Shown here: positions 2,363 to 62,769 of the stretch, one piece after another | How the letters are laid out: the number at the start of each line of letters is the position of its first letter | How positions within the stretch are numbered: the first letter of the stretch is position 1 | Assembly (NCBI GenBank): GCA_903846015.1 | Contig: CAIMZS010000460.1 | Coordinates: 40-64,039, forward strand | Direction of reading: 5' to 3' | DNA: 64,000 bases | Source: an uncultured Anaerolineae bacterium | GTDB lineage: Bacteria; Chloroflexota; Anaerolineae; Anaerolineales; Villigracilaceae | Translations under genes and position numbers: made by a program | Notes under the pieces: generated by a model | Told to the model about the DNA's origin: nothing | Database searches by the model: none | The model's input: only the letters and a program-made list of their open reading frames with translations

Positions 2363-2388
2363 GTGCCCGTGCTGAACCGGGTACCATT
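2363..2388. repeat. Short dispersed repeat, family A' (GCCCGTGCWGAACCGGGTACCATT)
   Basis: gtgcccgtgctgaaccgggtaccatt lies between the convergent stops of the YhhN and YitT genes. It is near-identical to 18977-19002 and, in reverse complement, to 12109-12132. Confidence 0.7.
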
Positions 2389-12108: not shown

Positions 12109-12132
12109 ATGGTACCAGGTTCTGCACGGGCA
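12109..12132. repeat. Short dispersed repeat, family A' (reverse orientation)
   Basis: atggtaccaggttctgcacgggca is the reverse complement of tgcccgtgcagaacctggtaccat. Confidence 0.6.
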
Positions 12133-18976: not shown

Positions 18977-19002
18977 TTGCCCGTGCAGAACCGGGTACCA
19001 TT
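18977..19002. repeat. Short dispersed repeat, family A'
   Basis: ttgcccgtgcagaaccgggtaccatt lies between convergent gene ends and is near-identical to 2363-2388. Confidence 0.7.
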
Positions 19003-51545: not shown

Positions 51546-51595
51546 GATATCCCGGCCACAGTCCCGGTTTCTGCAGCGGGCACGGGGTTGCAATT
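51546..51595. repeat. Degenerate copy of the short repeat (A/A'-like)
   Basis: gatatcccggccacagtcccggtttctgcagcgggcacgggg. The reverse complement contains GTGCCCGCTGCAGAAACCGGG, which resembles the A' core. Confidence 0.4.
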
Positions 51596-51782
51596 ACCCT
51601 TGCATAAGCAGCATAATTAGCGTAACCTGTTACCCGGGACCATATTTTACCGCAGTTCAACAAATTCATTGAGTTTTATGGGTTCTCTTATCTGCGCGCC
51701 TGTAAAAGATTACTGTAAATAAGACCTTTCGAGCCAACATCTCAGATCAGCACTGAAATTCCCAGGCGCAGTCCTGGTCTAT

Positions 51783-51819
51783 GCGATAGTCCCGCGATAG
51801 TGCCGGTTCTAGCACAGCC
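51783..51819. repeat. Short dispersed repeat, family A (reverse orientation)
   Basis: gcgatagtcccgcgatagtgccggttctagcacagcc. The reverse complement contains GTGCTAGAACCGGCACTATCGC. Confidence 0.75.
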
Positions 51820-52015
51820 ACTGCTACAAGGCGAAGGAATCGAAAATATGTGTTCACCCAATCCAAACCTATTTTCTACGAAATTCTGCACCACACCCTC
51901 GGCTTGGGCTTTACCCACTCTTAAAAAAGTGCTATGCTATGATTGGTTTTACATCATCCCGGCACAGACCGGGACCGTCCCTTTCTGAATCTCTCTATTA
52001 CTTGGCTAAAAATTC

Positions 52016-54580
52016 ATGGATAGCAAAACCCTGCACGTACTCGAATATCCCAAAATATTGGAACGCCTTGCCTCCAATTGTGACTTCTCCGCATCGGCAG
52101 CGCTGGCGCGTTCTCTCGAACCCACCACATCCTATGATACCGCCCTGCTGCGCCTGCAAGAGACAACCGAAGCACGCCGGTTGATCACTGCCCAGGATGT
52201 CAGCATTGGTGGGGCTCGTGATGTGCGCGAAAAAGTGGAACTGGCCCGGCGCGGCGGCGTGCTCGAAACAGTTGATCTGTTGGACATAAAATACACCCTC
52301 ATTTCGTGCCGTGAGCTTAAGCGCACACTGCTTGGAAAAGGAATGGACTCAGAAATTCAGCCAGAAGGCGCGACCCCATCCCGGCAGCCGAGTATCCCGA
52401 GGCAAAACCAGCTGCGGAAACAAGCCCGACAGCTCCGCGATGGCTCTGTGCCGCACCCGAATCATCCCTACCCGCGCATGGCCGAACTGGCCCTGGCGCT
52501 GCCCGTACCGCCCGGCGTCGTGGATGCCATTTCCCGCACCATCTCAGATAAAGGCGAAGTACTCGACTCGGCTTCACCCCGGTTAGGCGCCATCCGCGCC
52601 GAGATTCGCGTTGCACGCGAACGCCTGATGAGCCGCCTGCAGCGCTACCTGGGCGACAGCAAGACATCCCCAATGCTGCAAGACACCATCATCACCCAAC
52701 GAGATGGGCGCTACGTCATCCCACTGCGCGCCGAGTTCAAAGGCCAGATCAAGTCAATCGTTCACGACCAATCATCCAGCGGCGCAACACTCTTCATTGA
52801 ACCAATCGCTGTAGTTGAATTAAACAATAAAATGCGTGAAGTGGAATTAGCCGAACGTGACGAGATTCGCCGGGTTTTGGCTGAAGTTTCGGCCCAGGTT
52901 GGCCTGCAGGCCGAAGCTATCGTCACCGGTGTTGATGCCCTGGCAGCCATCGACCTGGCCTTTGCCAAAGCCAAATTTGCCGAAGACATCCATGCATCCG
53001 AACCAATCCTGCACAAACAATCCGCATTGATACGCCTCTTCAAAGCCCGCCACCCGCTGATCGACCCAACCATGGTGGTCCCCAATGACATCGATCTGGC
53101 ACCGGGTACACGCGCCGTTGTCATCACCGGGCCAAACACCGGCGGCAAGACCGTTTCGCTTAAGACCGTCGGTCTGCTGGTGGTCATGGCCCAAAGCGGT
53201 TTGCACATCCCCGCCCAGAGTGGCTCCGAATTATCCATGTTCCATGATATCTTCGCCGATATTGGTGATGAGCAATCCATTGAGCAATCACTCAGCACGT
53301 TCAGCGGTCATATCACCAACATCATCCGCATCCTGAAGAAGATCGACGCCCGTTCACTGGTCATTCTCGATGAACTGGGCGCCGGCACCGACCCACAAGA
53401 GGGCGCAGCCCTGGCGCGCGCCATCCTCAGCCACCTGCTTGAACGCGGGTTGACTACCTTTGTAGCCACACATTACCCCGAACTTAAAGCTTTTGCCCAC
53501 AGCGCCGAAGGCGTGGTCAACGCCTCGCTCGAATTTGACGTTGCCACCCTGCGGCCCACCTACCGCCTGACCATCGGCCTGCCGGGACGTTCCAATGCCC
53601 TGGCCATCGCCGCCAGACTGGGCCTGCCCGAAGCCATCATTGCCGATGCTCGTAACGAGGTCAACCCCGATGAATTGCGCGCCGACCGCCTGCTGGATGA
53701 TATCCGTAAAGAACGCAACCGCTCCAGCCGTGAACGTGAAAAAGCCGAAAAAGCCCGCCAGCGCATTGATGATCTCAGCAGCGAATTAGCCGCACATCTC
53801 GAAAAAATCGAAGACGAGCGCCTCGAAGTGATCGCCAGAGCCAAGGCTGAGGCCGAGCTCGAAGTAGAAGTGCTCAAACGCAATATTGGACGGCTCAAAA
53901 CCGAGTTGAAAAAGCTGCGCCAACCGCTCGAAGCCATTGAGAGACTGGAGATCAAAGCGGAAGCAATCGAGGAAAAAGCCCTGGCGCCCGTTGAGCGCCA
54001 GATTCCCGCAAAGGCAGCCAACCCAAAACCTCTCCCAAAACCCATCAGCGGACCGCTCAAGCTGGGCGAGAAAGTCATCGTTCGCAGCCTTGGCAGCGAA
54101 GGCATTGTCACTGCTCTGGGCGAAGGTGATGCCGAAGTACAGGTTGGCAGTTTGCGCATCCGTGCCCGCTTCGGCGAGATCCAGCGTAAATCTGACGCCG
54201 ATGAAAGCTGGCCTGGCATAGGCATCGGAAAAACAGATGAACCGGGCTTGACCGGACGCACCCGCCGCATTAAACAAATGGCAGAAAATATGCCATCGTC
54301 CACATCTTCATCCTATATCGGGATCGCCACACCCAGTATGGAACTTGACTTACGCGGGCAGCGCGCCGAAGACGCCCTGTTGATGCTGGATAATTACCTG
54401 GACAAGGCCTACCTGGCAGGCATGCCCTTTGTGCGTATCATCCATGGCAAAGGGACAGGTAAGCTGCGCCAGGAAGTGCGCGCAGTACTCAAAGATCATG
54501 CCCAGGTATCATCCTTCGAAGAAGGTCTTCCCGGCGAAGGTGGTGACGGCGTCACCGTTGCCAAAATTGTTAAAGATTAA
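52016..54580 (+). CDS. mutS2: Endonuclease MutS2 (MutS domain V ATPase plus C-terminal Smr domain)
   Basis: Walker A GPNTGGKTVSLKT, DELGAGTDP, a long coiled coil, and the Smr domain LDLRGQRAEDAL...IIHGKGTGKLR. Confidence 0.95.
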   Translation: MDSKTLHVLEYPKILERLASNCDFSASAALARSLEPTTSYDTALLRLQETTEARRLITAQDVSIGGARDVREKVELARRGGVLETVDLLDIKYTLISCRELKRTLLGKGMDSEIQPEGATPSRQPSIPRQNQLRKQARQLRDGSVPHPNHPYPRMAELALALPVPPGVVDAISRTISDKGEVLDSASPRLGAIRAEIRVARERLMSRLQRYLGDSKTSPMLQDTIITQRDGRYVIPLRAEFKGQIKSIVHDQSSSGATLFIEPIAVVELNNKMREVELAERDEIRRVLAEVSAQVGLQAEAIVTGVDALAAIDLAFAKAKFAEDIHASEPILHKQSALIRLFKARHPLIDPTMVVPNDIDLAPGTRAVVITGPNTGGKTVSLKTVGLLVVMAQSGLHIPAQSGSELSMFHDIFADIGDEQSIEQSLSTFSGHITNIIRILKKIDARSLVILDELGAGTDPQEGAALARAILSHLLERGLTTFVATHYPELKAFAHSAEGVVNASLEFDVATLRPTYRLTIGLPGRSNALAIAARLGLPEAIIADARNEVNPDELRADRLLDDIRKERNRSSREREKAEKARQRIDDLSSELAAHLEKIEDERLEVIARAKAEAELEVEVLKRNIGRLKTELKKLRQPLEAIERLEIKAEAIEEKALAPVERQIPAKAANPKPLPKPISGPLKLGEKVIVRSLGSEGIVTALGEGDAEVQVGSLRIRARFGEIQRKSDADESWPGIGIGKTDEPGLTGRTRRIKQMAENMPSSTSSSYIGIATPSMELDLRGQRAEDALLMLDNYLDKAYLAGMPFVRIIHGKGTGKLRQEVRAVLKDHAQVSSFEEGLPGEGGDGVTVAKIVKD

Positions 54581-54624
54581 TCCCGGTTTTTGTAATAGTC
54601 AGCAATAGCGTGAACAAAATTCTT

Positions 54625-54662
54625 AAAAAAGTAGCACGGCGGTAAATCGCCGTGCTACTTTT
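54625..54662. terminator. Bidirectional hairpin terminator after mutS2 (member of a repeated hairpin family)
   Basis: AAAAAA-GTAGCACGGCG-GTAAAT-CGCCGTGCTAC-TTTT has an 11-bp perfect stem. Confidence 0.65.
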
Positions 54663-54789
54663 AATCCTGACCACCACCGAACGCAAATCAGGCAAGTCTC
54701 ATATCAATCCGCTTTGCTGCTTCGAATAGGTTGGCGGTACCCTTATTGTTGCATCCAACGGTGGAACAGATTCGCACCCGGCCTGGTAT

Positions 54790-55254
54790 TTAAGGTTTAT
54801 ATCTGTGCCACTGCCTGGCAAACTTCAAAATCTGGCTGCGGATATAAAACATGTCTGGGTCTGCAATTGGGCGCTGTTTTTTGATCAACTTCATCGCAGC
54901 ATCCGCGCCATATCCCTGGGCAATCAAGATCGCCGCCCCCATCGCCACGCTGCGATGACGCCCCTTCGCGCAGTGCGAATATACTTTTCCACCTTTGCGA
55001 ATGACATCCAATGCGGTGTGTGTGCCTTCAATCAGCTTTTGGATCGGGATCAAGATGATTGGCGAATCAAAAGTCCGCAGCCACAAAAACTCCAATACTT
55101 CCGACCTGCGGTTTTCCGCAATGTCAGGGTGCGGCCCACGCATTAAACGCATATTGATCACCAGGCGCACCCCCAACTCTCGCAGCCGAACATAATCCAC
55201 TGCTTCAGGCGTGGTACCGATAAACAAATCGTCCGTAATTTGCGAAAAGTCCAT
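54790..55254 (-). CDS. Dual-specificity (Cys-based) protein phosphatase
   Basis: The active-site P-loop VYSHCAKGRHRS (HCx5R[S/T]). Confidence 0.8.
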   Translation of the reverse strand: MDFSQITDDLFIGTTPEAVDYVRLRELGVRLVINMRLMRGPHPDIAENRRSEVLEFLWLRTFDSPIILIPIQKLIEGTHTALDVIRKGGKVYSHCAKGRHRSVAMGAAILIAQGYGADAAMKLIKKQRPIADPDMFYIRSQILKFARQWHRYKP

Positions 55255-55277
55255 CCGTAAATTTTACTCCATTCCTG

Positions 55278-55330
55278 CGGCCGTGCTAGCGATAGTCCCC
55301 GGCTCCCGCACGGGGCACCGGCACTATAAG
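55278..55330. repeat. Short dispersed repeat, family A (hairpin form)
   Basis: gcggccgtgctagcgatagtccccggctcccgcacggggcaccggcactataag aligns with 58666-58713. Confidence 0.75.
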
Positions 55331-55331
55331 A

Positions 55332-55368
55332 CGAGATTGCCACGCCGCAAAGAACGCGGCTCGCAATC
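55332..55368. repeat. Short repeat, family B (ATTGCCACGYCGC...GAACGC...TCGCAAT), intergenic copy
   Basis: cgagattgccacgccgcaaagaacgcggctcgcaatc has the internal hairpin GCCGC/GCGGC and outer arms GATTGC/GCAATC. The same family occurs at 60045-60082 and 60659-60700. Confidence 0.6.
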
Positions 55369-55398
55369 TGAATCGGGTAGTATGCCAGGAATGGGAAT

Positions 55399-57084
55399 CT
55401 AACTTTTGGTGGCGGCAATCCACTCGTCCACACGCATTTCAAGCACATCCAGCGGAACGGCCCCGGCCAGCAGCACCACATCATGGAACTCCCGCACATC
55501 AAAACGCTGGCCGAGTACTTTTTCGGCGCGAGCCCGCAGTTCGCGGATCTTCAGCTCCCCCATTTTATAAGCCAGGGCCTGCCCGGGCCAGGCAATATAA
55601 CGGTCCACTTCATTAGTGATATTGAGCAGTGTTGAGGATGTATTTGCAGCCATGAAATCGATCGCCCTCTGACGTGACCAACCCAGGGCATGCAACCCCG
55701 TATCAACCACCAGGCGACATGCGCGCCACATTTCATAACTCAATCGACCAAAATTGCTGTACGGATCAGAATAAAAACCCATCTCCAGACCCAGGCGCTC
55801 GGCATATAACGCCCAGCCTTCTTCAAAAACCGTAAAACCGCTGAAACGGCGGAAATTCGGCAATTCAGTCAATTCCTGCTGCAGCGCAATTTGCAGATGA
55901 TGACCAGGAACCGCCTCATGCAGCGACAGGGCCTCTATCTCATATAATGGGCGGCTTTTTAGATCGTAGGTATTTACATAATAGAAACCAGCTTTGGTGC
56001 CGTCCCCTGTTCCCGGCATGTAATACGCCGTGGTTTGGCCTGGGGCGCTGAAGTCCGGCACAGATCGCAGCCCATATGGCAAGCGTGGCAGAGTTTTAAA
56101 TAACCGCGGCAGCTCACCGTCCACACGCTTCATCAGATAAGCTGTCTCCTTCAACAAAGCTTCAGGCGTATCCACATAAAAACGAGGGTCGCGCAGCAGA
56201 AATTCGACAAAAGCTTGGAAATCACCATGAAAACCAGTCTGGCGAATAACATCATTCATTTCTGCGCGAATACGCCTGACCTCATTTTGTCCTATCTCAT
56301 GCACAGCTTCTGCGGAAATATCAATAGTGGTGAAATAACGAATACGGCTTTGATAAAAAGCGCGCCCATCGGGCAAGTCGGCGGCAGCAATACTATTTCT
56401 AGCGCCAGGCAGATATTCATCTTCCAAAAAACGCACAAGCCCTGCATAAGCCGGAATGACCGAACCGCGAATAGCTTGATGGGCGGCATCGATCAAGCGT
56501 TCCTGGTCAACACCACCAACCGCTGCCGGAAAATCACTGAAAGGCTGGAAAAACACACTCTGCGCTGGATCATCCACACAATGCGCGGATAGGGATTCCA
56601 TCACCCCGCTCAGTGTGACGTGTGCTGGAATAAAACCGGCTTTCAAGCCAGCGCGCATGATATCTATGCTTTGTTCAAAATATTGAGATACGGCTGCCAG
56701 GCGGGCCAGGTAATTCTCGTAATCCTGGACCGTATCGAATGGGGACAGCAGATGCAGATCTGGAAAAAAGATATGAAAACCACCCGCCTTGGAAATGGGA
56801 AGGAAATGCGCCTTGTAATCCAGCTCAGCAATCTCGCTATCCAGCCTGCGCGCGAAGATATCATAATTCAGACGTTCGTCCTTGCTCAAAATGCTTCGAT
56901 CAAGGGCCGCCAGGCGGGTGCGAAAACCACGTAACTGGATCAGCCATGCCTGATAATGCGACTCATCTGCTCCTGGCAAGCGATCATTAAAACGCGAGTC
57001 GCCACAAGCCGTGGCAAAAATTGGATCCCAGCGCATCAACGCGTCCCAGTGATCCGCGAGCAATTGAGCTAATGGTGAGTTCAT
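55399..57084 (-). CDS. DUF885-family protein (putative metallopeptidase-like)
   Basis: The HEAVPGHHLQ motif and a typical DUF885 length. The start at 57084 gives MNSPLAQLLADHW. The 54 extra N-terminal codons of the long ORF are translated repeat elements. Confidence 0.85.
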   Translation of the reverse strand: MNSPLAQLLADHWDALMRWDPIFATACGDSRFNDRLPGADESHYQAWLIQLRGFRTRLAALDRSILSKDERLNYDIFARRLDSEIAELDYKAHFLPISKAGGFHIFFPDLHLLSPFDTVQDYENYLARLAAVSQYFEQSIDIMRAGLKAGFIPAHVTLSGVMESLSAHCVDDPAQSVFFQPFSDFPAAVGGVDQERLIDAAHQAIRGSVIPAYAGLVRFLEDEYLPGARNSIAAADLPDGRAFYQSRIRYFTTIDISAEAVHEIGQNEVRRIRAEMNDVIRQTGFHGDFQAFVEFLLRDPRFYVDTPEALLKETAYLMKRVDGELPRLFKTLPRLPYGLRSVPDFSAPGQTTAYYMPGTGDGTKAGFYYVNTYDLKSRPLYEIEALSLHEAVPGHHLQIALQQELTELPNFRRFSGFTVFEEGWALYAERLGLEMGFYSDPYSNFGRLSYEMWRACRLVVDTGLHALGWSRQRAIDFMAANTSSTLLNITNEVDRYIAWPGQALAYKMGELKIRELRARAEKVLGQRFDVREFHDVVLLAGAVPLDVLEMRVDEWIAATKS

Positions 57085-57096
57085 AATCCTCCAATT

Positions 57097-57180
57097 GCGA
57101 TAGTCCCGGTGCCAGCACGAGGCGATAGTCCCGGTGCCCCGTGGCCGTGCTAGAACGGGCACTATCGCGATAAATCGCTC
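57097..57180. repeat. Two adjacent family A repeat units
   Basis: gcgatagtcccggtgccagcacgag followed by gcgatagtcccggtgccccgtggccgtgctagaacgggcactatcgcgataaatcgc. Confidence 0.75.
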
Positions 57181-57384
57181 TACTATCTCAAGCAGGGGAA
57201 TTATACGATTATTAACGCTGCAAACTTTGCGACTTTGATGAAACAATCGCTTTGCGTGCGAGAAGCCGGGTTTATGTCTGCCTGCTTCCTGGCGAAACTA
57301 TTTTTATCACAATACCAGTCATCCCATGGAATGGTTCCGATCTCCACCTGGAGACACGGGCCCTGATGGAACAACCGCTTTGCG

Positions 57385-57418
57385 TGGCCCTGCTAGAACG
57401 GGCACTATCGCGATAAAC
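57385..57418. repeat. Short dispersed repeat, family A
   Basis: tggccctgctagaacgggcactatcgcgataaac. The preceding segment gatggaacaaccgctttgcgtg duplicates gatgaaacaatcgctttgcgtg at ~57236. Confidence 0.7.
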
Positions 57419-57582
57419 TGCTCATGATTTCCAAAATCAAAGGTAATTTATGGCTTGATCTTTACCGGGTTACAAGCCTTCTACTTCGTTTTTTTGTGTT
57501 AGACTTGCCAGATATTAATGGCTGGGCGGTGCCCGGCGATATTTCAGATGCTCCCCGTCTTTGTGCGGGAAGGAATAATCCT

Positions 57583-58638
57583 ATGCCTTATCGTGGACTT
57601 TTGGATAGATACGGCTCGCTGCTTAACCTGCCGGCCCACACTCGCCCCGTCACTCTCCTGGAGGGCAACACCCCGTTAATCCCCGCCGAAAATCTCTCCC
57701 GGCACCTGGGCGGCGGGTTTGATTTATTTGTTAAATTCGAGGGGCTGAACCCTACCGGCTCATTTAAAGATCGCGGAATGACCGCTGCCGTCAGCGAAGC
57801 GCTTGGGCGCGGCGCTAAAACCGTTATCTGCGCCAGTACAGGGAACACGGCTGCATCCGCAGCCGCCTATGCCTCACGCGCCGGGCTGAAATCAATCGTT
57901 CTGATCCCTCAAGGCAAAGTCGCTGCTGGAAAACTGGCTGGCGCCATCGCCTATGGCGCCCAGGTTGTCCAGATCGATGGCTCATTTGACGATGCCCTGA
58001 CTATGGTGGTGCAAATTTCGGACAAGCACCCTATCTGCCTGGTCAACTCGATTAACCCTTACCGCATCGAAGGACAAAAAACCGCGGCGTTTGAGATCTG
58101 TGATACGCTCGGCCGCGCGCCAGATTGGCTATGCCTGCCAGTTGGCAATGCCGGAAACATCACTGCTTACTGGGCTGGATTCAAACAATACGACGAACTA
58201 AATGCAACTGGCCTGCCCCAAATTTTGGGTGTACAGGCAGCCGGCGCAGCCCCATTGGTACTCGGTCATCCCGTTGAAAACCCCGAAACGGTGGCAACCG
58301 CCATCCGCATCGGCAAACCTGCGCGCGGCGAACAGGCCCTCGAAGCGGCCGAACAATCCAAAGGACGCATCATTGCCGTCAGCGACGACGAGATTCTTTC
58401 CATGCAAGCGCTGCTCGCCAGGCTCGAAGGCATCTGGGTCGAACCTGCTTCCGCAGCCGGGCTGGCCGGTTTGGCCCACGAAATCGCAGCTGGCAACTTT
58501 CACCCCGCCGGGAAACGCATTACAGCCATTTGTACCGGGCACGGCCTCAAAGATCCCGACATCATCATCAAGGGTATGACCAAACCCCAAATCGTCGCGC
58601 CAAATCTGGCTGCCCTTGAAGCCGTGCTTCTTGTCTGA
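57583..58638 (+). CDS. thrC: Threonine synthase
   Basis: MPYRGLLDRYG..., the PLP-lysine context NPTGSFKDRGM, and CASTGNT. A GGAAGGA Shine-Dalgarno sequence lies upstream of ATG 57583. Confidence 0.95.
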   Translation: MPYRGLLDRYGSLLNLPAHTRPVTLLEGNTPLIPAENLSRHLGGGFDLFVKFEGLNPTGSFKDRGMTAAVSEALGRGAKTVICASTGNTAASAAAYASRAGLKSIVLIPQGKVAAGKLAGAIAYGAQVVQIDGSFDDALTMVVQISDKHPICLVNSINPYRIEGQKTAAFEICDTLGRAPDWLCLPVGNAGNITAYWAGFKQYDELNATGLPQILGVQAAGAAPLVLGHPVENPETVATAIRIGKPARGEQALEAAEQSKGRIIAVSDDEILSMQALLARLEGIWVEPASAAGLAGLAHEIAAGNFHPAGKRITAICTGHGLKDPDIIIKGMTKPQIVAPNLAALEAVLLV

Positions 58639-58815
58639 ACCGCATCGTGCGGTGTCTGAACCGGCCCTGCTAGCGATAGTCCCGGCTCTCGCACGGGGCA
58701 CGGGCACTATCGCAGATTTACGCAGATTTAGATGATTACACAGATTAGAGCAGATTAGAGCAAGAGCAAGGTTAAAGACTATCTCGTGGCCGTGCTAAAT
58801 GATCCCGGTTCCCGA
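58632..58815. repeat. Mosaic of short repeat modules filling the thrC-thrB spacer
   Basis: The modules run in this order: GTCTGAACC-hairpin-GTCTGAACC; a family A hairpin; CGCAGATTTA x2; GATGATTACACAGATTAGAG plus CAGATTAGAG plus CAAGAGCAAG; and a degenerate family A end. It is collinear with 61531-61662. Confidence 0.8.
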
Positions 58816-58868
58816 ATCTGTACTTAACTCAGAATGATCTTGCAGTTCAGATTATCCAGGATGATTCC

Positions 58869-59783
58869 ATGAAAATACATGTAAAAGTACCTGCCACCAC
58901 CGCCAACCTTGGCCCCGGCTTTGATGCCCTCGGGCTGGCGCTCGATCTGTGGAACGAGGCCGAATTTATCGCCACCGATGACAGGCAAATCTCCCTGACC
59001 ATCGCGGGGGAAGGCGAAGGCAAACTGCCCACAGATGCCAATAACTCCATTGTTGATGCAGCCCTGCAGATATATGACCTGGCCAGGAAACCCTGCACCG
59101 GCATTCGTATCCACTGTATCAACCGCGTGCCGCTCAGCTCCGGATTGGGATCAAGTTCCGCGGCCATGTTAACCGGGCTGCTGGGGGCCAACGGTTTACT
59201 GGGCAATCCCTTCAGCGATGAAGAAATCCTCAAGCTGGCAATCGAAAATGAAGGCCATCCTGATAACGTTGCCCCCGCCATGCTGGGCGGGCTGGTGGCT
59301 TCGATCGTGTATGAGGGCCGTGTCATCTCGCTGAAGCTGCCCACCCGCGCCAACCGCTCACCCATGCATGTCACCATCGTCCTGCCTGATTTTGACTTCC
59401 CCACCAAACAGGCGCGCGCGATCCTGCCCAAACAGGTTGATCGCAAGGATGCCATCTACAACATCAGCCGCGCGGTACTGGTCACCGAGGCACTGCGCAC
59501 AGGCGATCTGGATCTGCTCGGCAAAGCCATGACGGATGCCCTGCACCAGCCTTTCCGCCTCCCGCTTATCCCAGGCGCACAGACTGCCATGGATGCCGGG
59601 CGGCATGCCGGGGCTGCCGCGGTGGCCCTCTCCGGCGCCGGCCCCAGCCTGATCGCATTCTCATCAAAAGAAGATCCGGCCATCGGTACAGCCATGAAGC
59701 GCAGCTTTGAATCCGCTGGTCTCAGCGCACGCATCTTCGAACTCGGCACGAGCTACGAAGGCGCGGAAGTCCTGATCGTATAG
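58869..59783 (+). CDS. thrB: Homoserine kinase
   Basis: The GHMP motifs VPATTANLGPGFDALG and PLSSGLGSSSAA. Confidence 0.95.
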   Translation: MKIHVKVPATTANLGPGFDALGLALDLWNEAEFIATDDRQISLTIAGEGEGKLPTDANNSIVDAALQIYDLARKPCTGIRIHCINRVPLSSGLGSSSAAMLTGLLGANGLLGNPFSDEEILKLAIENEGHPDNVAPAMLGGLVASIVYEGRVISLKLPTRANRSPMHVTIVLPDFDFPTKQARAILPKQVDRKDAIYNISRAVLVTEALRTGDLDLLGKAMTDALHQPFRLPLIPGAQTAMDAGRHAGAAAVALSGAGPSLIAFSSKEDPAIGTAMKRSFESAGLSARIFELGTSYEGAEVLIV

Positions 59784-59792
59784 TTGATAAAA

Positions 59793-61511
59793 ATGGAAAC
59801 CCTTTCCTCAAACATTGACAGCCGCTCTGTAGATTTTCTGGCCAATTCTGAATATCAGCGCGCGTTAGCGGCCAACCTGCGTGAACGCATCGAACTTGTT
59901 CGCCAGGGCGGCGGCGAGAAATACCGCCAGCGCCACGAGCAGCAAGGCAAACTTTTCGTCCGCGAACGTATTGAATGCCTGTTGGATCCGGGGTCGCCCT
60001 TCCTCGAGCTGTCTGCGCTGGCTGCATGGGATATGTACGGCGAGACTGCCACGTCGCTGGGGAACGCTCGCAATGACAAGAGTGAAAACGCCGCCCCAGC
60101 CGCAGGCATCGTCACCGGCATCGGACGCATTTGCGGGCATGAAGTAATGATCGTTGCTAACGATGCCACCGTCAAAGGTGGCACATACTTCCCCATGACG
60201 GTAAAAAAGCACCTGCGCGCCCAGCAAATCGCCGAAGAAAACCACCTGCCCTGCCTGTACCTGGTTGATTCAGGCGGGGCGTTTTTACCTATGCAGGATG
60301 AAGTCTTCCCGGACGCGAACCATTTCGGGCATATTTTTTATAATCAAGCCCGTATGAGCGCCAAAGCCATCCCGCAAATCGCCGCGGTCATGGGCAGTTG
60401 CACCGCTGGCGGCGCCTACGTCCCCGCCATGAGCGACGAGGCCATCATCGTCCAGGGCACAGGCACCATCTTCCTGGGCGGCCCGCCGCTGGTCAAAGCG
60501 GCGACCGGCGAGGATATTTCTGCCGAGGAACTTGGCGGTGCCGATGTGCATACCCGCAAAAGCGGCGTTGCCGACCATTACGCTGAAGATGATGAACACG
60601 CCATCTCACTGCTTCGCGATATCGTCGAAACTTTGCCAACCGCCAGATCTCGCCACGGGATTGCCACGTCGCTGGGGAACGCTCCTCGCAATGACAGGAG
60701 AGAGTCTTACCTGGCAGCGCTTGATGTAATCCCTCCGGAAGAACCGCTCTTTCCCGCCGAAGACTTATACGGCATCCTGCCACGCAGCTTCCGCGAGTCA
60801 TACGATGTGCGCGAGGTGATTGCCCGCCTGGTCGATGGCAGCAAATTCCGCGAATTCAAAGCGCGCTACGGTACAACACTTGTAACCGGTTTTGCCCGTA
60901 TTCACGGCTATCCTGTAGGCATTATCGCCAACAATGGCGTTCTTTTTAGCGAATCAGCTCTGAAAGCCGCTCATTTCATCGAGTTGTGCGATCAACGCGG
61001 TACACCACTTTTGTTTCTACAAAACATTACCGGCTTCATGGTCGGACGCGAAGCAGAGTCGGGTGGGATTGCACGCGATGGGGCCAAGATGGTACATGCC
61101 GTTGCCAACACCCGCGTACCCAAACTAACCGTGGTGATCGGGGGATCCTTTGGCGCCGGCAACTACGCCATGGCCGGGCGCGGCTATTCACCTCGCTTCC
61201 TGTGGATGTGGCCCAATGCGCGCATCTCCGTCATGGGCGGCGAGCAAGCCGCCAATGTACTCCTGACCATCAAGCAAGACCAGCTTGCCCGTGAAGGTAA
61301 GGCGGCGCTTAGCCCAGAACAGGCGGCTGAGTTTAAACGCCCCACTCTCGAAAAATATGAACACGAAGGCAACCCGTATTACTCCACCGCCCGGCTGTGG
61401 GATGATGGCGTGATCGACCCGCTCGACACCCGTAAGATACTTGGGTTGGCGCTCTCGGTGGTGCTCAATGGGCCGGTGGAAGACAATCATTTTGGTGTCT
61501 TCAGGATGTAA
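59793..61511 (+). CDS. Methylcrotonoyl-CoA carboxylase beta (carboxyltransferase) subunit, with two repeat-derived in-frame inserts
   Basis: Long stretches match recalled MCCC2/LiuB sequence ([61 protein letters not shown]). The ATG at 59793 is preferred over the TTG at 59784. Confidence 0.9.
60045..60082 (+). repeat. Family B repeat inserted in-frame in the carboxyltransferase CDS (copy 1)
   Basis: actgccacgtcgctggggaacgctcgcaatgacaagag encodes [13 protein letters not shown]. Confidence 0.7.
60659..60700 (+). repeat. Family B repeat inserted in-frame in the carboxyltransferase CDS (copy 2)
   Basis: gattgccacgtcgctggggaacgctcctcgcaatgacaggag encodes [13 protein letters not shown]. It differs from copy 1 by about 2 substitutions and one 3-nt indel. 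Confidence 0.7.
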
Positions 61512-61530
61512 CCCTGCGCCCTTTTCACCG

Positions 61531-61662
61531 CGTGTCTGAACCACCTCGTGCGGTGTCTGAACCGCAGATTTACGCAGATTTCGATGATTACGCAGATTAG
61601 AGCAAGAGCGAGTGTCTGAACCGTTGCGTGTCTCGTGGCCGTGCTAGAACCGGCACTATCGC
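61531..61662. repeat. Mosaic of short repeat modules between the carboxyltransferase and the SDR gene
   Basis: The modules run in this order: GTGTCTGAACC x3; CGCAGATTTA x2; GATGATTACGCAGATTAGAGCAAGAGCGAG; and CGTGGCCGTGCTAGAACCGGCACTATCGC. The module order matches 58632-58815. Confidence 0.8.
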
Positions 61663-61673
61663 TGGAGTAATTC

Positions 61674-62720
61674 ATGAACATCCTCATCATCGGTGGAACT
61701 CGCTTTCTTGGTCGTCACCTTGTCGATGCCGCGCTCTCAAACGGGCATACCATCACTCTTTTTAATCGCGGTAAAACAGGTCCAGAACTTTTTCCACAGA
61801 TCGAAACGATTAACGGCGACCGCGAAACGGATCTGAACAGGCTGGCCGGCCGTCAATGGGAGGCGGTCATCGATACCTGCGGGTATTTTCCGCGCATTGT
61901 TAACCTCTCTGCTCAGGCGCTCAAAGATTCAGCCGGAATGTTTGTTTTTATTTCCAGCTTTTCAGTTTATGCAGATTTTTCCAGGATCGGTATCAACGAA
62001 AGCGACCCGACCGGCGGACTGACCGATGAAGGCATCGAAGAAATCACGGGCGAGAGTTACGGCCCCCTGAAAGCGCTGTGCGAACAATTTATTTCGCAAA
62101 AATTCCCGGAACGGGCCCTGATCATCCGCCCTGGACTGATAGTAGGCCCCCATGATCCCACCGACCGCTTTACTTATTGGCCCGCGCGCGTTGCAGCAGG
62201 CGGCGATGTGCTTGCCCCGGAAGACCCGCAGGTCCCTGTCCAAATCATCGATGTGCGTGACCTGGCCGGGTTTATCATCCATCTGATCGAACAGAAATCA
62301 ACCGGCCATGGCCCTGCTAGAACGGGCAATATCGCTAGAACCGGCACTATCGGCGTTTATAACGCCACCGGTCCTGCCGTTGAGCTAAGTTTCGGGGCCA
62401 TGCTTGAAACCTGCAAACAAGTCAGCGGCTCGGATGCGAATTTCAAGTGGGCATCCGTTGAGTTTCTGTCTGAAAACAAGGTTGCTCCATGGAGCGACCT
62501 GCCTGTCTGGGTACCAAATACACCCGCCGATGCTGGATTTTCCCGCGTCGATATTTCCAAAGCGCTCAGCGCTGGTCTGACCTTCCGCACTCTCTCCGAG
62601 ACAGTGCGCGATACGCTGGCCTGGGCATCCACCCGCCCAATTGACTACAAATGGCTGGCGGGCCTGGATACCGATCGCGAAATCGAACTGCACAGCCTCA
62701 TGAGGGAGACACGGCGATAA
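61674..62720 (+). CDS. NAD-dependent epimerase/dehydratase (SDR family) with a repeat-derived in-frame insert
   Basis: MNILIIGGTRFLGRHL Rossmann start, YGPLK catalytic Y-x3-K context. Confidence 0.8.
   Translation: MNILIIGGTRFLGRHLVDAALSNGHTITLFNRGKTGPELFPQIETINGDRETDLNRLAGRQWEAVIDTCGYFPRIVNLSAQALKDSAGMFVFISSFSVYADFSRIGINESDPTGGLTDEGIEEITGESYGPLKALCEQFISQKFPERALIIRPGLIVGPHDPTDRFTYWPARVAAGGDVLAPEDPQVPVQIIDVRDLAGFIIHLIEQKSTGHGPARTGNIARTGTIGVYNATGPAVELSFGAMLETCKQVSGSDANFKWASVEFLSENKVAPWSDLPVWVPNTPADAGFSRVDISKALSAGLTFRTLSETVRDTLAWASTRPIDYKWLAGLDTDREIELHSLMRETRR
62310..62354 (+). repeat. Family A repeat (1.5 units) inside the SDR CDS, in frame
   Basis: ggccctgctagaacgggcaatatcgctagaaccggcactatcggc encodes GPARTGNIARTGTIG. 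Confidence 0.75.
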
Positions 62721-62769
62721 ATCGCCGTGCTATCATGTACGGGATTGGAAATAACAAGGGATCAACCAA

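Follow-up and report, generated by a model that had tools for sequence, protein, structure and literature searches.

A 24-Nucleotide Repeat Inserted at Y^G Sites in an Anaerolineae Genome: A Probable Very Small Mobile DNA Element

Copies of the Repeat in the Window

The window, the whole 64,000-nucleotide (nt) stretch of contig CAIMZS010000460.1 analyzed here, comes from a metagenome-assembled genome (MAG) of an uncultured Anaerolineae bacterium (6.5 Mb, 662 contigs; labeled G000). It carries copies of a short repeat, designated family A, whose 24-nt unit (GGCCSTGCTAGAACSGGCACTATC; 25 nt in the CTCG...CGGG subfamily) inserts precisely at Y^G sites, and which is probably a very small, non-autonomous mobile DNA element. 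Using the 22-mer core of the repeat and allowing up to three mismatches, we detected eight matches in the window (51794, 57097, 57147, 57390, 58673, 61641, 62314, and 62332), as compared with none in 100 shuffles. All family A copies on the contig lie beyond 51.7 kb, and two more are located just past the window end. The cluster that a preceding sequence-only reading had placed in the last ~11 kb, each site of which was inspected, is therefore real. The copies, and the gene hosting one of them, are listed below.

51783-51793: 11-nt fragment of a second unit, adjoining the full unit that follows
51794-51819, minus strand: full unit (GGCTGTGCTAGAACCGGCACTATCGC on the minus strand), in the divergent spacer of the ABC ATPase and MutS2 genes
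55278-55330, mixed orientation: degenerate composite in the spacer between the phosphatase and DUF885 genes, comprising a reversed CTCG-type unit together with a 5′ piece (GGCCGTGCTAG) and a 3′ half, both forward
57097-57146, minus strand: two reversed CTCG/CCCG-type units, immediately upstream of the DUF885 start (57084)
57143-57168, plus strand: full B-type unit (GGCCGTGCTAGAACGGGCACTATCGC)
57386-57411, plus strand: full B-type unit (GGCCCTGC...GGGC); 12 nt separate it from the ATG of the pyridoxal phosphate (PLP)-enzyme open reading frame (ORF) downstream
58673-58713, mixed orientation: reversed degenerate CTCG-type unit (58673-58696) and forward 3′ half (58700-58713)
58782-58812, plus strand: degenerate remnant (CTCGTGGCCGTGCTAAATGATCCCGG...)
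61637-61662, plus strand: full A-type unit with TCTCGT in front, 12 nt upstream of the epimerase ATG
61674-62720, plus strand: gene of the NAD-dependent epimerase/dehydratase family (348 aa), host of the insertion that follows
62304-62351, plus strand: in-frame 48-nt insertion in the epimerase gene, encoding residues 211-226, GHGPARTGNIARTGTI; counted among the full units at 62310-62351

Pfam identified the genes around these copies as ABC ATPase, MutS2, dual-specificity phosphatase, DUF885, PLP enzyme, GHMP kinase, carboxyltransferase, NAD epimerase, and biotin carboxylase. The copies distort six-frame ORFs, as the sequence-only reading had stated. The DUF885 ORF (55399-57246) overruns the start at 57084, which is associated with a full Pfam match, by ~53 codons, confirming the artificial extension described earlier. 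The segment 57097-57180, previously counted as two units, contains three. The full B-type unit at 57143-57168 and the two reversed units at 57097-57146 form a rare inverted composite, with a folding energy of −21.1 kcal/mol (z −3.8), while the copy at 58673-58713, which corresponds to the long hairpin form of the earlier reading, yielded −13.4 kcal/mol (z −2.0). The unit at 61637-61662 is probably nested within a CTCG-type remnant, as TCTCGT precedes it. The spacer in which it lies is 162 nt long, versus ~50 nt in the orthologous spacer of congener G015.

An independent ENA assembly of the same population is 99.96% identical to our sequence over 12,587 nt, with zero gaps, and contains every window copy. 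The copies are thus not assembly artifacts, an alternative that had been raised for them, and the window loci are fixed in the population of the ENA assembly.

The Repeat Unit and Its Subfamilies

We aligned 430 genome-wide matches together with their flanks and determined the information content at each position. It was zero outside 26 positions, which were resolved as the 24-nt unit plus target bases. In the unit, a 4-bp stem (GCCS/SGGC) encloses a 9-nt loop (TGCTRGAAC), with a single-nt overhang on the 5′ side and a tail of 6 nt (ACTATC). The earlier proposal that the element is a longer palindrome with 8-bp plus 4-bp pairing was not borne out, since the real unit is 24 nt with a weak 4-bp stem, and inverted pairs account for only 6 of the 187 neighboring pairs.

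Counting with an 18-nt core pattern that covers three subfamilies yielded 642 units at 505 loci, consisting of 408 solitary units and 97 arrays of two to at least five units. The 22-mer core occurs 477 times at up to three mismatches, far above chance, and nhmmer returned 515 matches at E<0.1. Family A is by far the commonest 14-mer family in the genome. Matches within 150 nt of a contig end amounted to 16%, versus 3% expected, indicating that the arrays break the assembly and that the counts underestimate the true copy numbers. The genome also holds 176 copies of a sister family, A′ (GTGCAGAACCGGGYACCAT), with a 23-nt tandem period. In agreement with the sequence-only reading, the early window contains this family sparsely, as three copies in the first 20 kb:

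2369-2387, plus strand: A′ copy (GTGCTGAACCGGGTACCAT)
12109-12127, minus strand: A′ copy
18983-19001, plus strand: A′ copy

Of 324 full units, 167 match one or the other of two consensus sequences exactly. Three stem types were observed, GCCG/CGGC (160), GCCC/GGGC (124), and CTCG/CGGG (86), in which two of the four pairs are swapped from G-C to C-G. At positions 5 and 15, 177 units have G/C, 127 have C/G, and 12 have a mismatch. Among 104 distinct variants, the stem positions were paired in 84% of cells, versus 70% in shuffles (none of 500 shuffles attained the level observed) and no more than 54% in slid controls. This covariation supports a structural requirement, although it falls short of proof.

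Precise Insertion at Y^G Sites

To obtain paralogous filled and empty sites, the flanks of each locus were joined and then searched in the genome, and only clean flanks were kept. Among the 29 pairs, 19 differ by 24 nt and seven, of the CTCG subfamily, by 25 nt, so that 26 are exact; the remaining three differ by 27, 29, and 48 nt. The paralogous empty sites include TTAC^GCAG, AACC^GCAG, GAGC^GCGG, and TCGT^GCTGG. The six independent empty sites are all Y^G. The site GATGATTAC^GCAG was occupied independently by two subfamilies in different copies of the host repeat.

Orthologous comparisons gave empty sites as well. The epimerase insertion site reads ACC^GGCG at the DNA level. A kinase-like gene contains 24 extra nt at GCCGT^GGGC, and a GH3 glycosidase gene contains 72 extra nt, both in comparison with congeners of 68-86% protein identity. 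The reverse case was also found, in which a unit is filled in congener G024 and in a JGI metagenome contig (L019), while the spacer is ~26 nt and empty here. The comparison of insertion sites with related genomes that the sequence-only reading had put forward as a check thus bears out insertion, as do the paralogous sites.

In the flanks of 206 solitary units, position −1 is C in 57% and T in 40%, position +1 is G in 98%, and position +2 is C in 65%. Whole units insert precisely at Y^G, usually Y^GC, without target duplication. A 2-nt CG target duplication was considered; it fits the C^G sites and fails at the T^G sites, which is the reason for rejecting it. In the filled/empty pairs, the first 1-3 bases of the insert match the bases just after it.

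Arrays, Self-Nesting, and Inverted Composites

Neighboring units within 120 nt of each other were in direct orientation in 181 pairs and inverted in 6 (n = 187). They were spaced at 24-25 nt or at 18 nt, and the hexamer GGCCNT was seen in runs as well. The unit has an internal insertion site, GGCCGT^GC, and insertion there generates the order hexamer-hexamer-18-mer-18-mer, while each insertion leaves ...TATC^G at the 3′ junction. The presence of a Y^G site within the unit and the re-creation of one at every junction account for the nested forms and the 24-nt tandem arrays, respectively. We identified 23 loci with at least two hexamers followed by at least two 18-mers, 14 of which are exactly 2+2.

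The epimerase copy exemplifies this arrangement. Its insertion reads GGCCAT GGCCCT, followed by GCTAGAACGGGCAATATC GCTAGAACCGGCACTATC (...GGGC... and then ...CCGGC...); an A-type unit here encloses one of B type, and the stem halves pair in nested order. Such a pairing is not what slippage would generate. At some loci, the hexamers (up to seven) exceed the 18-mers in number, indicating that slippage also acts. Units were additionally found inserted into other mini-repeats. Long hairpins form where two units sit in inverted orientation, an arrangement that is real in the window and exceptional genome-wide.

Copies within Protein-Coding Genes

A crude gene caller of our own placed 104 of the 505 loci within genes. 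A stricter test, requiring an open frame across the locus and coding potential over 60 codons on each side (sensitivity 76%, false-positive rate 0.8%), was passed by 47 loci, a lower bound. The earlier statement that the copies sit just outside coding regions therefore does not hold throughout, as at least 47 loci lie in frame inside genes. The in-frame copies use only the four stop-free frames, in both orientations, encoding GRARTGTI, AVLEPALS, IVPVLARP, and DSAGSSTA. With a unit length (24 nt) divisible by three and stops in only two of the six frames, copies that land in genes persist by adding eight residues to loops. These ~50 natural in-frame insertions show which protein loops tolerate additions. 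As the units inflate or truncate predicted ORFs, the annotation of these MAGs is affected as well.

Three in-frame insertions were checked against orthologues, those of 24 nt in the kinase-like gene, 48 nt in the epimerase gene, and 72 nt in the GH3 gene. The 16 extra residues of the epimerase are absent from eight full-length homologues and from the 119 other homologues listed (326-339 aa). In the AlphaFold model of the epimerase (mean predicted local distance difference test (pLDDT) score 81.6; predicted template modeling score 0.85), residues 212-225 have pLDDT values below 50 and form a coil between the helix 194-209 and the strand 228-231. In this predicted structure, the insert appears as a disordered loop in an otherwise confident fold. 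The biotin carboxylase gene, at the end of the contig, contains in its C-terminal part a whole mosaic of other repeat modules, with two family A units, that is read in frame.

L058:12470-12590, ~64140-64260 of the contig, past the window end: biotin carboxylase mosaic (GTCTGAACC, GCAGATT, two family A units, CGCAGATTAGAGCAAGTGCGAG)

The densest contig is C471 (22 kb), with 20 matches. Its large repetitive proteins (646-2406 aa) hold several units in frame that carry a private GATCC variant; no other variant was found to be locally clustered.

Distribution and Recent Change

At up to two mismatches, 372 copies are present in this genome; among 24 congeners, 22 have none, one has one, and one has two. 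In 200 genomes of the same bacterial family, the related motif GTSCNGGAACCGGGACTACC recurs in some genera, and the core GAACSGGSACTAYC is conserved in several genera. The related families number 61 copies in G137, 21 in G024, and 18 in G108, with periods of 27 and 20 nt and the same stem-loop geometry as family A. Across 300 genomes of the class, the core motif was at the control level outside this bacterial family. JGI metagenomes contributed one contig with the motif, from a G024-like species, and viral contigs contained eight single matches, at or below chance for a degenerate 18-mer by our rough estimate. From these sequence comparisons, we conclude that the family is old and patchy, with a burst in the present lineage.

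The loci are overdispersed along the genome (variance/mean 2.8 per 10-kb bin; 234 empty bins versus 158 expected), and adjacent bins correlate (rho 0.36). Density climbs with GC content: the 58 bins with less than 48% GC hold four loci in all, and those with 54-56% GC average 1.8 loci each. Modules GTCTGAACC and CGCAGATT are co-distributed with the units and absent from unit-free contigs. Local spread was rejected as the cause of clustering, as the variants are not locally clustered: their distances within and between contigs were 2.42 and 2.33, respectively (p 0.81), and individual contigs carry a mixture of subfamilies (chi-square p 0.14). The asymmetry of the window, which the sequence-only reading had called unexplained, is accounted for only in part. 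Density varies with GC content throughout the genome, yet in the window the first two bins lack copies at a GC content of 53%.

On the large contigs (≥20 kb), ~25% of the sequence (0.78 of 3.18 Mb) is devoid of family A, GTCTGAACC, and related modules. With a stricter nhmmer definition, the repeat-free contigs of at least 20 kb are lower in GC (0.498 versus 0.517). Some unit-free contigs may be mis-binned or recently acquired, given the MAG contamination of 5.85%. The closest public relatives of one MAG gene are all Anaerolineae/Chloroflexota MAGs.

Differences between samples were found at two arrays. Depending on the sample, the biotin carboxylase product is 547 or 539 aa long, a difference of one unit (8 aa). 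At C72:13032-13074, two 25-nt units are present here, and another sample is 25 nt shorter. The esterase gene at C72:12076-13240 encodes 380 aa in ENA sample ERZ1426842 and corresponds to a 336-aa ORF here, with an extra 25-nt unit near the 3′ end; this difference may be a frame-shifting repeat polymorphism.

Search for a Mobilizing Enzyme and a Host Function

The Y1 transposase domain (PF01797) was searched in this genome and five relatives, and the flanks of the matches were inspected. The search for a repetitive extragenic palindromic (REP)-associated tyrosine transposase (RAYT), which had been suggested along with the REP-like label, found none in this fragmented genome assembly. Its two PF01797 matches (62.5 and 35.7 bits) are located at G000:C501:1069-1698 (L011) and on G000:C397 (L012:1408-3258). 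Both have YLQW instead of the HUH motif, and one has F in place of the catalytic Y. A long YLQW form (~520-620 aa, with a long disordered N-terminal part) is kept in relatives with and without the repeats and looks like a domesticated or inactive transposase domain.

Unit orientation matches the local GC skew at 171 of 263 loci (p 1e-6; 45 versus 23 contigs), independently of gene direction, with matches of 62% for subfamily A, 67% for B, and 80% for C. Other repeat modules are equally biased, including AGATTGCCACGYCGC (19 of 24), while family A′ is not. We therefore did not accept the orientation bias as proof of replication-coupled insertion, since unrelated modules share it, and retain it as a hint of strand-specific behavior rather than a demonstration of replication-coupled single-strand insertion.

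We found no sign of a host function in the gene contexts. Of the classifiable loci, 326 of 430 are intergenic. In co-directional contexts, 109 units run with the genes and 119 opposite, and tandem, divergent, and convergent spacers are hit approximately in proportion to their length, without context bias. A link to translation starts was suggested by three window copies located 11-14 nt before an ATG, but there is no genome-wide peak and no preferred unit distance to gene starts, and it was dismissed. A scan for promoters and terminators found no such site coinciding with any unit, and no T-run. Rfam returned no match to the unit.

Comparison with Known Systems

Small dispersed repeats (SDRs), namely SDR4-6 of Nostocaceae, were reportedly described by Elhai et al. 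in 2008, and we know of no encoded or identified transposase for them. SDRs are ~20 nt long and both tandem and dispersed, and SDR5 inserts between nucleotides 3 and 4 of the repeat HIP1 (PMC2884548, PMC4390886, PMC5861425). Among HIP1-enriched cyanobacterial genomes, no SDR-like repeat was reported outside Nostocaceae (PMC5861425). These repeats are the closest analogue of family A, likened by behavior and not by sequence. Both have a small hairpin, and mobility is deduced for both from precise insertion into short sites and other repeats. Family A falls within the SDR size and arrangement (21-27 nt, dispersed and tandem), and its filled and empty repeat copies with a short, defined target correspond to the precise insertion of SDRs. 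The systems differ in host, Nostocaceae versus Chloroflexota (Anaerolineae), and in target, HIP1 versus Y^G(C). The 24-nt length of family A, which results in frequent in-frame intragenic copies, and its self-nesting at an internal site also distinguish it.

Mycobacterial interspersed repetitive units (MIRUs) are 40-100 bp long and occur at ~40 loci, intergenically within operons and in one orientation. Like MIRUs and dispersed minisatellites, family A has direct tandem units at many loci, copy numbers that vary between close strains, and frame-compatible lengths; unlike in MIRUs, single units insert precisely at a dinucleotide target. The insertion sequence (IS) group IS200/IS605 (IS608, ISDra2) consists of 1.3-2-kb elements encoding TnpA, with two different hairpin ends and a 4-5-nt target. 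Family A resembles this group in the absence of target duplication, the adjoining short sequence, the small hairpin that would be recognized, and an orientation that may be tied to the replication strand, whereas it is 24 nt long, has one weak hairpin and a 2-3-nt target, and was accompanied by no active TnpA in the assembly. DNA uptake sequences (DUS) and uptake signal sequences (USS) are 9-12-nt motifs that accumulate by substitution, often as inverted pairs at terminators. Family A copies arise instead as 24-nt insertions, and inverted pairs are rare.

REPs are recognized by a tetranucleotide tag, GTAG or CGTC, that marks one end of the palindrome, and intragenic REPs are known (PMC3733652). 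Family A shares with REPs and REP doublet forming hairpins (REPINs) its short length, abundance, compensated stem, lineage-specific abundance, partly intragenic location, and the type of single-strand hairpin mechanism that has been proposed for them (PMC3733652, PMC3116915). It differs in that neither the unit nor its reverse complement contains GTAG or CGTC, in its 4-bp stem as opposed to a stable palindrome of 20-40 nt, in its direct arrays as opposed to inverted doublets, and in the lack of a unit-flanked RAYT in this fragmented assembly. A miniature inverted-repeat transposable element (MITE) is likewise a poor fit, as the unit is 24 nt, where 50-500 bp and a related parent IS would be typical, and has no terminal inverted repeat (TIR), target duplication, or recurrent parent element. 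Rickettsia palindromic elements are selfish and are found in frame in many unrelated genes, where they encode a conserved peptide at tolerated positions (PMC10969869). Family A shows the same in-frame behavior at a different size, with 24 nt and eight residues versus ~100-150 bp for these palindromic, MITE-like elements, which also differ in taxon and sequence (PMC10969869). We found no description of such repeats for Anaerolineae in the literature.

Interpretation and Alternatives

The precise borders, the target, and the nested forms are best understood if family A represents a mobile DNA element that is non-autonomous and very small, which we regard as probable. Whole 24-nt units insert at Y^G without target duplication into spacers, mini-repeats, and genes, and a unit also inserts into itself and beside itself, giving rise to nested forms and tandem arrays. 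The compensated stem suggests that pairing may be needed for mobility. Movement might proceed via a folded single strand handled in trans by an enzyme, and the element would be selfish rather than functional for the host. Whatever its mechanism, family A is among the smallest mobile-looking elements seen in bacteria.

Several observations weigh against this interpretation. No RAYT, parent IS, or other mobilizing enzyme was found in the fragmented assembly; no units lie within 1.5 kb of either PF01797 protein, the canonical IS200 TnpA genes of G137 and G024 are not flanked by units, and clustering of the inter-unit segments revealed no recurrent segment or parent element. The single-unit hairpin (−3.4 kcal/mol, z −0.4) is no more stable than those of shuffles, and the covariation reflects approximately three subfamily founders instead of many independent events. 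The orientation bias (62-80%) is not specific, as it is common to unrelated repeat modules. Near-identical assemblies differ only in array copy number, which slippage could also produce, and no fresh solitary insertion was seen between them. Finally, the MAG has 5.85% contamination and 662 contigs that break at arrays, and the gene calls are crude, with at least one "genic" call (a thiolase, C126) being an ORF extension.

Some of these points would suit a dispersed minisatellite lacking dedicated transposition, spread by microhomology-mediated template switching or gene conversion during replication or repair and expanded into arrays by slippage, which we consider unlikely. It would accommodate the neighbors that are almost always direct and 24-25 or 18 nt apart, the hexamer runs (up to seven) that outnumber the 18-mers at some loci and require slippage, the one-unit array changes that constitute both population differences, the match between the first 1-3 bases of an insert and the bases downstream of it, and the failure to find a transposase. 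However, it gives no reason to expect the same 24-nt borders at 19 of 29 sites, strict Y^G (97% and 98%) without longer homology, the purity of two compensated stem subfamilies, or exact 2+2 nesting at 14 loci in one step, and copying from neighbors is contradicted by variants that are not locally clustered. The sequence-only reading had favored a REP/MITE-like element. A classical REP or REPIN moved by a RAYT, or an IS-derived MITE, now seems very improbable: no GTAG/CGTC tag is found on either strand by published criteria (PMC3733652), 6 of 187 neighboring pairs are inverted, so that the copies are not mainly inverted pairs, the assembly has no intact or unit-flanked Y1 transposase, and there is no TIR, target duplication, or parent element. 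These features outweigh the resemblance offered by short, GC-rich, highly repeated units that are mostly intergenic (326 of 430 classifiable loci) and lineage-specific in abundance, with compensatory stem changes, some well-folding inverted composites in the window, and the precedent of intragenic REPs (PMC3733652). We give still less credence to a host-functional site, whether bound by a nucleoid or regulatory protein, taken up as a DNA-uptake sequence, or acting as an RNA terminator or stabilizer. Although several genera of the bacterial family share a conserved core (GAACSGGSACTAYC), the unit is missing from 22 of 24 congeners; the three window copies that end 11-14 nt ahead of a start codon have no counterpart in a preferred start distance, gene-orientation bias, or context bias genome-wide; and while orientation follows the GC skew, in-frame coding copies occur in both orientations. 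Furthermore, no T-run, terminator-like or promoter-like match, or Rfam family was found, and the copies come as 24-nt insertions, rather than by point mutation as uptake sequences do.

Beyond the mobility of the element, it is conceivable, if rather doubtful, that the system moving it, of a cut- or copy-and-paste kind, is new to description and limited to one Anaerolineae family. On single-stranded DNA, such a system would read a minimal 4-bp hairpin together with its GAAC...ACTAYC flanks, and it would place units of 24-27 nt at Y^G sites, duplicating no target bases. If true, the element would rank as the smallest transposable unit for which a target is defined, and it would be a natural source of 8-residue loop insertions across dozens of proteins. 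It is an old and open question how repeats far too short to have any coding capacity spread in bacterial genomes. To our knowledge, it has been settled only for REPs, through RAYTs, and the SDR case has been open since 2008. Family A provides an unusually clean case, with exact borders, a two-base target, and an array structure explained by self-nesting, and it also offers compensated stem variants, a recent burst, and low-copy relatives for comparison.

Other Repeats in the Window

Two mosaics of other mini-repeat modules lie near the family A copies.

58632-58775, plus strand: mosaic of the modules GTCTGAACC, CGCAGATTTA, and GATGATTACRCAGATTAGAGCAAG
61533-61630, plus strand: second mosaic of the same modules, with ~10 genome matches at 80-99%

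Elsewhere in the genome, the modules of the first mosaic act as insertion targets for the units. A separate palindromic repeat, CACGGCGATAAATCGCCGTG, occurs at 54632-54654 and 62710-62732, with 36-41 copies genome-wide. Both window copies sit at gene ends, where the one at 62710 overlaps the stop codon of the epimerase gene, and the repeat may represent a hairpin element of its own. Another repeat family, AGATTGCCACGYCGC, is located at 55331-55348 and has 47-70 copies in the genome.

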